This document shows positions 15,981-22,156 of a stretch of DNA of 64,000 bases, one piece after another. The notes below the pieces were generated by a model. That model searched no databases. It saw only the letters and a list, made by a program, of their open reading frames with translations, and was not told the DNA's origin. Made by a program: the position numbers and the translations under genes. Source of the DNA: Escherichia coli (lineage in GTDB: Bacteria > Pseudomonadota > Gammaproteobacteria > Enterobacterales > Enterobacteriaceae); the NCBI RefSeq assembly GCF_013315695.1, contig NZ_CP054353.1. One strand, 5' to 3'. Each line of letters opens with the position of its first letter. Position 1 is the stretch's first letter.

Positions 15981-16700
15981 TTATCGCCCCTGAATGGCTA
16001 AATCACCCGGCAGATTTTTCTGCATCCGGTGCCAAATCTCGCCGCTCTCATGCCCATAGCGACGCACTGTTTCGTATACCTGATCGTGTGCGCCTTCACT
16101 GCACAACGCCGACAGTTTGTGGTAGAAGCCCAGCGCCAGACTGCGCGCTTCCGGATTGGCGAAATAGTGACGACCAATGCGCGTATACAGCCCTTTCATC
16201 CCGTTAAGGATCAGACCGTAAATCGGGTTGCCAGAAGCAAACGCCAGACCGCGGAATATGTTGTAATCCAGCTCGGCAAAGGCATCGGCGTGATCGGCCA
16301 CTTCATTAGCGGTAGCCAGCACTTCCTGCGCTTTATCGGGATGCTGACGAAACGCGGTGCGAATAAAAATAGTGGAAATATTGGTACGCACCGACAGCAA
16401 ATTATCAATAAGCTGCGGCACACTTTCGTGATCCAGTCGCGCCAGCGTTTCAAGGATATTTAAACCGGAGGTTTCCCAGAAATTATTCACCTTCGTCGGC
16501 TTGCCATGTTGAATGGTCAACCAGCCATCTCGTGCCAGACGCTGTAACACTTCACGTAACGTAGTACGCGTTACGCCAATTAATTCTGAAAGTTCACGTT
16601 CTGCGGGCAAAATAGTCCCGGGAGGGAAGCGGTTATTCCAGATACTTTCAATAATGTACTCTTCCGCGAAACCCGCCGGGCTTTGCGCCTTAATGACCAT
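15981..16700 (-). CDS. fadR: fatty acid metabolism regulator (GntR family)
   Basis: 239 aa from [25 protein letters not shown]. Confidence 0.9.
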
Positions 16701-19185: not shown

Positions 19186-20454
19186 TTATTTGACCCGCAG
19201 TAAATCAGAACTTCGCGTTGTATAACGTGGTGAAAGCATGGCACGCTTCATCTGCCATTGTTGCTGGATCCCCTGCCCGGCAAAATAGAGTGTTCCTCTG
19301 CCCTCTTTAGCATTTAGCGTATCCATTACCGCCATCAATTGCTAACTCCCGGGGCGCGGTGCGTTGTCATCGAATAAATTGAGCTGCGCGACTCCCTGAC
19401 TGAAGAAATCTCCCAGCATCACGCCCGCTTTTTGGTAGCGATGGCCCGCTTGCCAGATGGCATCCAGAGATCGCGTAGCGGCGTTAATGATATCCCTGCT
19501 GTCCTGAGTGGGCGTCAGCAGTTTTACCGACGCGCTATTGCCGTAATAAGGTTCATTGAGCGCAAATGGTGACGTCTTAATAAACGTGGAGATAAACCGA
19601 CAATATTGATGCTCGCTGCGAAGTTTTTCCGCCGCCCGGGCAGCGTAACTACAAATGGCCTGCCGCATCGACGTATAATCCGTGATGCGTTCACCAAACG
19701 AACGGGAACAGATAATTTCCTGCTTCGTCGGTGCAAACTCTTCCAGTTGCAAACAGGGTTCGCCGCGCAGTTCACGCACCGTTCTTTCGAGCACGACATT
19801 AAAATGTTTACGGATAAACCGGATATCTGTATCCGCCAAATCGAGAACGGTTTTGATCCCCATCGCATCCAGTTTTTTGCTGATCCGCCGTCCAATCCCC
19901 CAGACTTCATCCACGGGGAGAGCAGACATTAATTTACGCTGGCGTTCCAGATTTGATAAATCCACCACCCCACCCGTCTGCCGCTGCCATTTTTTTGCCG
20001 CATGATTGGCAAGCTTAGCCAGCGTTTTGGTCTGGGCGATCCCCACACCAACAGTAAGATGGGTACATTGTAGCACCGTTGCGCGAATTTCTCTGCCAAA
20101 ATCAGTCAGATCGCGACAATTACGCACACCGGTCAGATCGCAGAATGCCTCATCAATACTGTAAATCTCGACGCGGGGCGATAGTTCTTCCAGCGTCGAC
20201 ATCACCCGATTGCTCATGTCTGCGTAAAGCTCATAATTGCTGCTAAAGCAAACCACGCCACAGCGACGAAACAGATCTTTTTGTTTGAACCAGGGATCGC
20301 CCATTTTAACACCCAGCGCCTTTGCCTCAGCGTTTCGGGCGATAACGCAACCGTCATTATTCGATAGCACAACCACTGGTTTACCCCATAAATCAGGGCG
20401 AAACACCGTCTCACAGCTGGCATAAAACGCGTTTACATCACAGAGGGCAAACAT
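19186..20454 (-). pseudogene. umuC: umuC (DNA polymerase V catalytic subunit) with in-frame premature TAG at 19342-19344; predicted product 370 aa instead of 422
   Basis: ORF 19342..20454 ends ...DDNAPRPGS*; the same frame continues QLMAVMDTLNAKEGRGTLYFAGQGIQQQWQMKRAMLSPRYTTRSSDLLRVK to a stop at 19186-19188. Confidence 0.8.
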
Positions 20455-20873
20455 CAGCGCATCGCCTTAACGACGTGGATCACCACACCAAAGACATCCA
20501 GCGTATCTTCACTACTGATGGTAATGGGCGAGTACGCGCTGTTCATGGGAATAAGCTGTACCGTCGGGCGTAGTTGCAATTTTTTCACCGTAAACTCGCC
20601 GTCAACAGCAGCGATGACAATATCACCATGGCTGGCGGTAATAGCGCTATCGACAATCAGTAAATCACCGTCACTAATTCCACCATCAATCATAGAATCA
20701 CCACTTGCTTTGACGAAGTAAGTCGCGCTGGGATGCTGGATCAACAGTTGATTCAGATCGATGCGCTGTTCAATGTAATCTGCGGCCGGTGAAGGAAAGC
20801 CACACTGAACAAGATCGCTAAATAGCGGAAAAGTCACAATTTCGCGGAGATCCGCAGGCTTGATAAACAACAT
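20454..20873 (-). CDS. umuD: DNA polymerase V accessory subunit UmuD
   Basis: 139 aa, [36 protein letters not shown]; start/stop overlap with umuC (ATGA). Confidence 0.9.
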
Positions 20874-20901
20874 AATAATCTGCCTGAAGTTATACTGTTT
20901 T

Positions 20902-20921
20902 TATACACAGTAGTCTGTTCT
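20902..20921. promoter_or_regulatory. LexA operator (SOS box) of umuDC
   Basis: TACTGTttttatacACAGTA fits CTGT-N8-ACAG, about 30 bp upstream of the umuD start. Confidence 0.6.
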
Positions 20922-21103
20922 TACCAGCAGATCAATACTGATTCAGGCTATCAATATTTGTCGCTGCATAGACTGCTGATTTTTCGTTCTCTTATCCTGT
21001 GCTCACGCGCCTTCTGGCGACGACGCTCATCCAGCAGAAATGAAAAATATCACCCGGCTAAAAAATAGAATAGAAGCATCAGCCATAATGACATTAAACA
21101 TTG

Positions 21104-21119
21104 TTTGATATTTATCATA
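21104..21119. promoter_or_regulatory. FNR/CRP-type site in hlyE promoter
   Basis: TTTGATATTTATCATA (TTGAT-N4-ATCA half sites) upstream of hlyE; recalled as the documented hlyE FNR/CRP site. Confidence 0.5.
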
Positions 21120-21244
21120 TTAATAGAAATAAAGACATTGACGCATCCCGCCCGGCTAACTATGAATTAGATGAAGTAAAATTCTTTAATAGTTGTAAAA
21201 CAGGAGTTTCATTACAATTTATATATTTAAAGAGGCGAATGATT

Positions 21245-22156
21245 ATGACTGAAATCGTTGCAGATAAAACGGTAGAGGTAGTTAAAAACGCAATCGAAAC
21301 CGCAGATGGAGCATTAGATCTTTATAATAAATATCTCGATCAGGTCATCCCCTGGCAGACCTTTGATGAAACCATAAAAGAGTTAAGTCGCTTTAAACAG
21401 GAGTATTCACAGGCAGCCTCCGTTTTAGTTGGCGATATTAAAACCTTACTTATGGATAGCCAGGATAAGTATTTTGAAGCAACCCAAACAGTGTATGAAT
21501 GGTGTGGTGTTGCGACGCAATTGCTCGCAGCGTATATTTTGCTATTTGATGAGTACAATGAGAAGAAAGCATCCGCCCAGAAAGACATTCTCATTAAGGT
21601 ACTGGATGACGGTATCACGAAGCTGAATGAAGCGCAAAAATCCCTGCTGGTAAGCTCACAAAGTTTCAACAACGCTTCCGGGAAACTGCTGGCGTTAGAT
21701 AGCCAGTTAACCAATGATTTTTCAGAAAAAAGCAGCTATTTCCAGTCACAGGTAGATAAAATCAGGAAGGAAGCGTATGCCGGTGCCGCAGCCGGTGTCG
21801 TCGCCGGTCCATTTGGTTTAATCATTTCCTATTCTATTGCTGCGGGCGTAGTTGAAGGGAAACTGATTCCAGAATTGAAGAACAAGTTAAAATCTGTGCA
21901 GAGTTTCTTTACCACCCTGTCTAACACGGTTAAACAAGCGAATAAAGATATCGATGCCGCCAAATTGAAATTAACCACCGAAATAGCCGCCATCGGGGAG
22001 ATAAAAACGGAAACTGAAACAACCAGATTCTACGTTGATTATGATGATTTAATGCTTTCTTTGCTAAAAGAAGCGGCAAAAAAAATGATTAACACCTGTA
22101 ATGAGTATCAGAAAAGACACGGTAAGAAGACACTCTTTGAGGTACCTGAAGTCTGA
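21245..22156 (+). CDS. hlyE: pore-forming hemolysin E / cytolysin A
   Basis: 303 aa from MTEIVADKTVEVVKNAIETADGALDLYNKYL; start chosen inside the longer ORF 21101..22156. Confidence 0.9.
   Translation: MTEIVADKTVEVVKNAIETADGALDLYNKYLDQVIPWQTFDETIKELSRFKQEYSQAASVLVGDIKTLLMDSQDKYFEATQTVYEWCGVATQLLAAYILLFDEYNEKKASAQKDILIKVLDDGITKLNEAQKSLLVSSQSFNNASGKLLALDSQLTNDFSEKSSYFQSQVDKIRKEAYAGAAAGVVAGPFGLIISYSIAAGVVEGKLIPELKNKLKSVQSFFTTLSNTVKQANKDIDAAKLKLTTEIAAIGEIKTETETTRFYVDYDDLMLSLLKEAAKKMINTCNEYQKRHGKKTLFEVPEV

Follow-up and report, generated by a model that had tools for sequence, protein, structure and literature searches.

A natural amber codon in umuC deletes the C-terminal domain of the DNA polymerase V catalytic subunit in a clone of Escherichia coli

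Results

The umuDC Locus and the Amber Codon

The window, that is, the whole 64-kb stretch of Escherichia coli DNA analysed here, carries the umuDC operon in the chromosomal neighbourhood hlyE-umuD-umuC-dsbB-nhaB. Both umuD and umuC lie on the minus strand, as do all features described below. The LexA operator (SOS box) of the umuDC promoter was read at positions 20893..20912 as TACTGTGTATAAAAACAGTA. It differs from the K-12 box by one A->G change, and both half-sites of the CTGT-N8-ACAG structure are kept. The same variant of the box is present in strain AF3, in which umuC is intact. In the ORF listing, umuD occupies positions 20454..20873 and encodes 139 amino acids followed by a stop codon. 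Its translation contains the Cys24-Gly25 cleavage site, differs from K-12 UmuD only by V34I, and scores 163 bits against the NCBIfam model NF007621, whose cutoff is 110. In RefSeq, the umuD product is WP_000897372.1 both in strain MSB1_4I, which is identical to the window in this region, and in strains with the intact umuC allele. The first-pass annotation described the LexA box and umuD as intact, and the comparison agrees with it.

The umuC reading frame starts with the ATG at position 20454, which overlaps the stop codon of umuD. The full frame of 422 codons extends over positions 19186..20454 and contains an internal amber codon, TAG, at codon 371 (positions 19342..19344). The truncated ORF (positions 19342..20454) encodes 370 amino acids ending in APRPGS, followed by the TAG, and includes the IMS palm and fingers, the HHH thumb, the IMS_C little finger, and the clamp motif. 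Beyond the TAG, the same frame reads QLMAVMDTLNAKEGRGTLYFAGQGIQQQWQMKRAMLSPRYTTRSSDLLRVK*, which is 51 codons ending in SSDLLRVK, with the TAA stop codon at positions 19188..19186. The sum of 370, 1, and 51 is 422, the full length of UmuC, and the loss is therefore 52 residues. The remnant downstream of the amber codon (codons 372-422 and the TAA, positions 19186..19341), which would be either untranslated or separately translated, is identical to the intact allele. The earlier claims that the amber codon cuts 52 residues off UmuC and that the downstream sequence still encodes the UmuC C-terminus are thus both correct.

Codon 371 is GAG, encoding Glu, in K-12 MG1655, as the first-pass annotation stated, and also in MS 21-1, AF3, IAI39, and CE10. 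The base behind the TAG is a G->T change, in the sense of the minus strand, at position 19344. In the 1,688-bp umuDC segment, MS 21-1 differs from the window only by having G instead of T at this base. IAI39 and CE10 differ from the window in this segment at the codon-371 base and at one other position. These comparisons indicate that one G->T transversion is the only lesion in the umuC allele, and the single-base cause that had been considered likely is borne out by the related strains. The umuC gene of the window is a bacterial pseudogene generated by a nonsense mutation: the stop codon is in frame, the downstream frame is conserved, and the change is reproducible.

Distribution of the Amber Allele

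Of the 5,426 complete RefSeq genomes of E. coli, a single one is matched by a 61-mer and by a 31-mer with the TAG at their centre. This is the genome of MSB1_4I, which originates from a rectal swab in Australia, and these searches showed the TAG on no other umuC background among the complete genomes. RefSeq annotates umuC of MSB1_4I (JMX41_RS10670) as "DNA polymerase V catalytic protein", a pseudogene with an "internal stop". There are no mismatches between MSB1_4I and the window over 4,688 bp around umuDC. The end-to-end alignment of the window to MSB1_4I shows three SNPs (positions 16233, 26546, and 38888) and a 14-bp indel at around position 32571. As these differences set it apart from the MSB1_4I record, the window is a second genome of the same clone.

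The exact 370-aa product was found on 267 contigs (455 index blocks) in a large protein collection. The carriers include isolates in NCBI from at least two collections (UMEA 3304-1, UMEA 3190-1, and STF37652.1), gut-metagenome assemblies in ENA, and Logan assemblies of SRA data. Three of the loci were fetched. One of them (L007) matches the window without a difference over 4.7 kb, with the TAG included. Another (L005) is identical except for a scaffold N gap, and the TAG is present. The third, from a metagenome scaffold, has the same TAG, and its SNPs relative to the window are clustered in two patches.

Among the complete genomes in which umuC is intact, the nearest is that of AF3, which originates from a blood culture in the UK. 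AF3 and the window differ by four SNPs in 24 kb, and the G->T change in umuC is among them. The window and MSB1_4I jointly differ from AF3 at three positions in these 24 kb. These are the umuC nonsense mutation, a synonymous change in ycgM, and a nonsense mutation on the AF3 side, Q134* in an LRR-domain gene. Judged from these sequence comparisons, the G->T change in umuC is recent, yet it predates the divergence of the window strain from MSB1_4I.

The closest relatives of the clone with respect to umuDC include IAI39 and CE10, which presumably belong to phylogroup F. The canonical LexA operator and the upstream promoter region of umuDC were independently lost to an insertion in IAI39 and MS 21-1. 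CE10 is likely to have the same loss, as judged by its annotation and the missing box.

Domains Removed and Retained

The search of intact UmuC against Pfam detected IMS at residues 5-150, IMS_HHH at 172-200, IMS_C at 245-360, and DUF4113 at 371-421. The DUF4113 match covers all 51 positions of the model (1-51/51) with an E-value of 6e-22. Since DUF4113 begins at residue 371 and all other Pfam domains are upstream of it, the amber codon deletes exactly the C-terminal domain. Codon 371 and the remnant together correspond to DUF4113, which contains the RecA N-terminal oligomerisation motif (RecA-NT) and the UmuD'-binding tail.

The beta-clamp-binding motif QLNLF, at codons 357-361, is retained. 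Its position, computed from the start at 20454, is 19372..19386. The motif is now located nine residues ahead of the new C-terminus, which reads ...GVAQLNLFDDNAPRPGS*. The position of the clamp motif and a crystal structure with the clamp have been published (PMC3716654).

The truncated product scores 786.3 bits against the UmuC model NF002955 of NCBIfam, far above the cutoff of 431, and it aligns to positions 1-370 of the 422 in the profile. The intact allele scores 893.5 bits. The operon context is also that of umuC: umuD is located upstream with overlapping stop and start codons, the LexA box is present, and the gene order is hlyE-umuDC-dsbB-nhaB. The model score and the QLNLF motif are those of UmuC, but the set of domains including DUF4113 is not found on one polypeptide. 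On the basis of its sequence, the umuC product of the window is classified as a truncated member of UmuC encoded by a pseudogene, and not as a functional member.

The layout of the truncated UmuC, with a polymerase core, a little finger, a near-terminal clamp motif, and no C-terminal domain, resembles that of DinB (Pol IV). By sequence it is still UmuC, as the 786 bits against NF002955 contrast with at most 170 bits against the models for Pol IV, all of which are below their cutoffs. The activity of UmuC requires UmuD'2 and RecA, whereas DinB works alone. Pol V has no solved structure, and the only structural matches to UmuC are DinB/Dpo4-type cores, up to around residue 332, so that the lost domain is without an experimental structure.

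A putative ribosome-binding site is present next to the amber codon. It is the Shine-Dalgarno-like sequence GGGAG (positions 19346..19350) in the native Pro-Gly-Ser codons, 7 nt upstream of TTG373 and 10 nt upstream of ATG374. The predicted duplex of GGGAG with the 3' end of 16S rRNA has an energy of -6.9 kcal/mol, compared with -3.6 kcal/mol at the umuD start and -4.7 kcal/mol at the umuC start. Gene callers report an ORF of 49 aa downstream of the TAG, which matches DUF4113 and positions 374-422 of the NF002955 profile.

Amber Suppressors and Paralogues

The first-pass annotation had suggested looking for an amber-suppressor tRNA. For this, 31-mers with a CTA anticodon were designed for glnV/X, tyrT/V, serU, and leuX and compared with the complete E. 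coli genomes. The supE 31-mer matched 157 genomes, and the 60 matches listed consist almost entirely of named laboratory strains of K-12 or their derivatives, which serves as a positive control. The supF 31-mer was found only in OV2 and the supD 31-mer only in DSM 498 among the complete genomes, while the supP 31-mer had no match among them. The anticodons of MSB1_4I read directly are of the wild type: CTG in glnV/X, TTG in glnU/W, and TTT in the lysT cluster. By the 31-mers and the anticodons taken together, supE, supF, supD, supP, supB, and supG are all absent from MSB1_4I. No tRNA genes were found within the 64-kb window. The chromosome of MSB1_4I has a large inversion relative to K-12, which shifts the position of the glnV locus.

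A plasmid- or island-borne paralogue of Pol V could mask the phenotype of the allele. In a tblastn search with UmuC against the first 50 kb of each of two IncF plasmids of MSB1_4I and around 214 kb of its chromosome, umuC itself was the only match.

Discussion

Loss of the C-Terminal Domain and Its Predicted Consequence

The C-terminus of UmuC has been characterized in several studies. The first ~30 residues of DUF4113 are homologous to RecA-NT, and this motif of UmuC was modelled as docked onto RecA (Timinskas & Venclovas, PMC6511836). RecA carrying N113Bpa showed the strongest cross-link to the UmuC peptide 361-376 (Gruber et al., PMC4374754), a peptide that straddles the stop at codon 371. 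In the model of Pol V published in 2025, residues L418-K422 of UmuC add a beta-strand to UmuD', and the N-terminal arm of UmuD' contacts both the core and the tail of UmuC (PMC11791011).

Published deletions at the UmuC C-terminus, as compiled in PMC11791011, span 1 to 26 residues and were made in K-12 constructs. With 26 residues removed, UmuC no longer bound UmuD' (PMC11791011, citing Jonczyk & Nowicka 1996; Sutton & Walker 2001), and SOS mutagenesis was abolished as well. The removal of one residue reduced Pol V-dependent mutagenesis and made UmuC sensitive to Lon, and the removal of two or three residues rendered the cells essentially non-mutable (PMC11791011, citing Goodman et al. 2016). 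These deletions share with the amber allele the loss of the UmuD'-binding C-terminus. The amber allele differs from them in being natural, chromosomal, and larger (52 residues), and in also removing nearly all of RecA-NT. No deletion of exactly 52 residues of UmuC was found in the literature searched.

Classical umuC alleles of K-12, such as the C-terminal truncation umuC122::Tn5 and missense alleles, abolish UV mutability while umuD is intact. Like the amber allele they are chromosomal and leave umuD intact, but they were obtained in laboratory screens, whereas the amber allele comes from a natural, human-associated clone.

The allele is a genuine, recent, and clonally inherited nonsense allele of umuC, and it is very likely to be essentially null for Pol V. 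As the LexA operator, the promoter region, and umuD are kept, SOS induction would still transcribe the operon and yield UmuD and UmuD'. Translation of UmuC would end at residue 370, leaving the polymerase core, the little finger, and the beta-clamp motif. The loss of DUF4113 would remove the RecA-NT-like helix-strand element through which UmuC attaches to RecA within the Pol V mutasome, and also the terminal strand for UmuD' binding. Because the 52-residue cut takes the contacts to both RecA and UmuD', the UmuD'2C-RecA-ATP mutasome should fail to assemble, and the unprotected UmuC would be degraded by Lon. The strain is predicted to show little or no UV- or SOS-induced translesion mutagenesis and to lack UmuD2C-dependent functions, while the UmuC-independent roles of UmuD would persist. 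Judging from the published deletions and cross-linking, the loss of UmuD' and RecA binding, the instability of UmuC, and the non-mutable phenotype very probably apply. The first-pass annotation called the truncated subunit plausibly impaired in translesion synthesis. This wording appears too cautious, if anything, as the whole of DUF4113 is lost and smaller published deletions already abolish mutagenesis.

Alternative Explanations

The TAG could in principle be a sequencing or assembly artefact with G as the true base, and its presence in a single one of the complete genomes may be taken in that direction. The probability of this is negligible, because the 370-aa product is called on 267 contigs from unrelated projects and technologies, two of the fetched loci (L005 and L007) have the TAG on the same sequence, and two distinct genomes, those of the window and of MSB1_4I, share it. 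The change is moreover a substitution and not an indel. Methylation sites, GATC and CCWGG, are prone to base-call errors in long reads, but neither is seen by inspection around the TAG (CCCGGGAGTTAGCAATTG). An assembly error was rejected on the ground that many independent assemblies have the same 370-aa product, and the question of the base call in the raw reads, raised in the first-pass annotation, is thereby answered indirectly. Functional full-length UmuC might instead be produced from a genuine TAG, by a suppressor tRNA or by natural read-through. Lesions of this type, one amber codon in an otherwise intact frame, are the ones that suppressors rescue, and the TAG is followed by C. Read-through of UAG varies with its context, and a following C, which weakens termination, raises it. 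The tRNA genes inspected, those of MSB1_4I, cover part of the set of the clone, and trpT and phage- or plasmid-borne tRNAs are further possible suppressors. On the other side are the absence of the supF, supD, and supP 31-mers from MSB1_4I and the wild-type anticodons read there. A strong amber suppressor, rare among natural isolates, would also misread every gene that ends in TAG. Suppression to functional levels is thus highly improbable, while low natural read-through of UAG could give a trace of full-length UmuC.

Translation could also re-initiate at TTG373 or ATG374, 3-6 nt past the TAG, so that UmuC(1-370) and a DUF4113 peptide of 49-50 aa reassemble into a partly functional Pol V. The pairing of GGGAG is stronger than that at the native starts of umuD and umuC, and the 49-aa ORF is recognised by gene callers. 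The position of the cut coincides with a domain boundary, within the segment after the clamp motif that is described as a linker (PMC3716654), and the UmuD' arm contacts both core and tail in the published model (PMC11791011). These features suggest that re-initiation giving a free DUF4113 peptide is plausible. Complementation by two pieces is unlikely, and such a reassembled polymerase as an explanation of the allele has a very low probability. The intact alleles examined contain both GGGAG and Met374 as part of their ordinary coding sequence, with no sign of selection for re-initiation. UmuC lacking 26 residues has no detectable binding to UmuD' (PMC11791011), which implies that the core alone fails to bind it. 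The separate peptide would bind UmuD' and RecA without tethering them to the polymerase, and the RecA-cross-linked peptide 361-376 would be cut in two. It is equally improbable that the 49-50-aa product acts as a micro-protein, either within a two-piece Pol V or as an SOS-induced binder of UmuD'2 and of the 3' tip of the RecA filament. If it did bind in that way, the mutagenesis or the RecA dynamics of the clone would be changed. The reading as an essentially Pol V-null allele is preferred over all of these. The truncation could have been selected, either through the loss of Pol V, with less SOS mutagenesis or relief from UmuDC toxicity or checkpoint effects, or through a function of the truncated core of its own. 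The allele persisted while its carriers diverged by the three SNPs in the 64-kb window that separate it from MSB1_4I. The intact allele, identical but for this base, is seen on 641 contigs and the amber allele on 267, although contig counts mirror sampling and not fitness. The losses of the operator in IAI39, MS 21-1, and probably CE10 hint that the operon was repeatedly hit in this group, and the clamp motif of the truncated product is in a DinB-like near-terminal position. Against this, the amber codon represents a single mutational event, no parallel ones having been documented in this analysis, and AF3 has a nonsense mutation of its own in an unrelated gene, as expected of tip mutations that are unpurged under drift. 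In the absence of UmuD', UmuC is reported to be labile to Lon (PMC11791011), which argues against an autonomous role. Selection is therefore an unlikely cause. The excess of disruptive changes among the very recent SNPs points to drift at the tips of the clonal tree, and neutral or slightly deleterious decay of the non-essential umuC is favoured. The 51 codons past the TAG show no further change relative to the intact allele.

Relation to Previous Annotation and Significance

The amber allele of umuC is already known, in the sense that RefSeq flags it as a pseudogene in MSB1_4I. That annotation concerns the identical allele and flags the stop, while the lost domain and the sharing of the allele by many assemblies are not stated there. 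The literature searched for MSB1_4I, natural umuC pseudogenes, premature stops in umuC, and natural variation of umuDC contained nothing on the TAG allele. A "premature stop" in PMC4045847 was rejected because it is in dnaN and not in umuC. The allele is an ordinary pseudogene at the tip of the tree in a non-essential gene, and its consequence is predictable from the published deletions of UmuC.

If the predicted loss of Pol V holds, the carriers constitute a clone associated with the human gut and bloodstream that is without Pol V-dependent SOS mutagenesis. At least one of the carriers, MSB1_4I, has a CTX-M-14 plasmid. Such a clone would be a possible natural test, outside the laboratory, of the share of Pol V in stress-induced mutation and in the evolution of antibiotic resistance. 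Its main practical value is that of a natural, predicted Pol V-null strain for which AF3 is available as a near-isogenic relative with an intact umuC.

Loss of the canonical umuDC operator in related strains

The promoter regions of umuDC in IAI39 (L003) and MS 21-1 (L002), two related strains with intact umuC, were aligned at about 1369-1500 with 20860-21110 of the window. In both strains, the homology does not start until halfway through the LexA box (AGACCCATATAAAAACAGTA vs TACTGTATATAAAAACAGTA). The left half-site of the box and all upstream sequence are replaced by an insertion of ~2.7 kb. The replaced upstream stretch presumably includes the -10 and -35 elements, as judged from the K-12 promoter. 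The insertion contains a divergent ClbS/DfsB-family gene and ISEc53, and in MS 21-1 additionally IS1. CE10 (L004), a third strain with intact umuC, was covered by annotation only; the same insertion is annotated there, and neither form of the LexA box was found. As the half-site and the upstream sequence are replaced, umuDC in these strains is without the canonical SOS operator; for CE10 this reading comes from the annotation and the absent box.

In the window, the umuDC LexA box (20893-20912, minus strand) shows an A-to-G substitution compared with K-12 (TACTGTGTAT... vs TACTGTATAT...). We take this substitution to be a change away from the LexA consensus. It is common to AF3, the nearest complete genome with intact umuC, and the other loci carrying the umuC TAG. 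The gene directly adjoining umuD is hlyE (clyA; 21245-22156, plus strand), in the same arrangement as in K-12. It is intact and encodes 303 aa, and the ORF at 21101-22156 is the hlyE frame extended upstream to a TTG start.

Nonsense mutations in sister lineages

A leucine-rich-repeat/hypothetical gene (10085-11521, plus strand, 478 aa) is intact in the window and in MSB1_4I, the complete genome of the same clone. In the near-identical strain AF3, CAA is changed to TAA (Q134*) at window position 10484. Each of the sister lineages thus has a private nonsense mutation within 24 kb. When the 24-kb segment was used as a query, most chromosomes showed a second matching place. In the window, an autotransporter beta-barrel gene survives as a remnant (27743-28087), annotated as incomplete with the N-terminus missing, and there is a full autotransporter adhesin gene of the "ECIAI39_1904 family" (29402-32050).

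Comparison with MSB1_4I

No complete RefSeq genome matches the window exactly. The comparison of window 1-64000 with 2151405-2215404 of the MSB1_4I chromosome (NZ_LR898874.1) revealed three SNPs, at 16233 (synonymous, in fadR), 26546 (within minD), and 38888, and one 14-bp indel. The indel is in the IS2 copy interrupting ymgF (32554-33870; 1317 bp in the window). Compared with the MSB1_4I copy, the window copy is missing a 14-bp stretch (TCCAGACATCTGTT) that covers part of a terminal repeat and the last transposase codons. The window copy may be immobilised by this loss, or the 14 bp may represent a difference between the assemblies.

Gene order at three MSB1_4I loci (L016-L018) implies a large inversion of the chromosome relative to K-12. 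Its centre of symmetry is at K-12 coordinate 1.59 Mb, close to the replication terminus. When the inversion was modelled, the glnV cluster of MSB1_4I was found where the model had placed it. Plasmid 3 of this strain (NZ_LR898876.1, L020) is an IncFII plasmid with ISEcp1-blaCTX-M-14. It also has an integrase-flanked insert, located amid the plasmid leader genes (ssb, psiB), which contains an Avs4 anti-phage nuclease as well as a gene of the AbiGi family.
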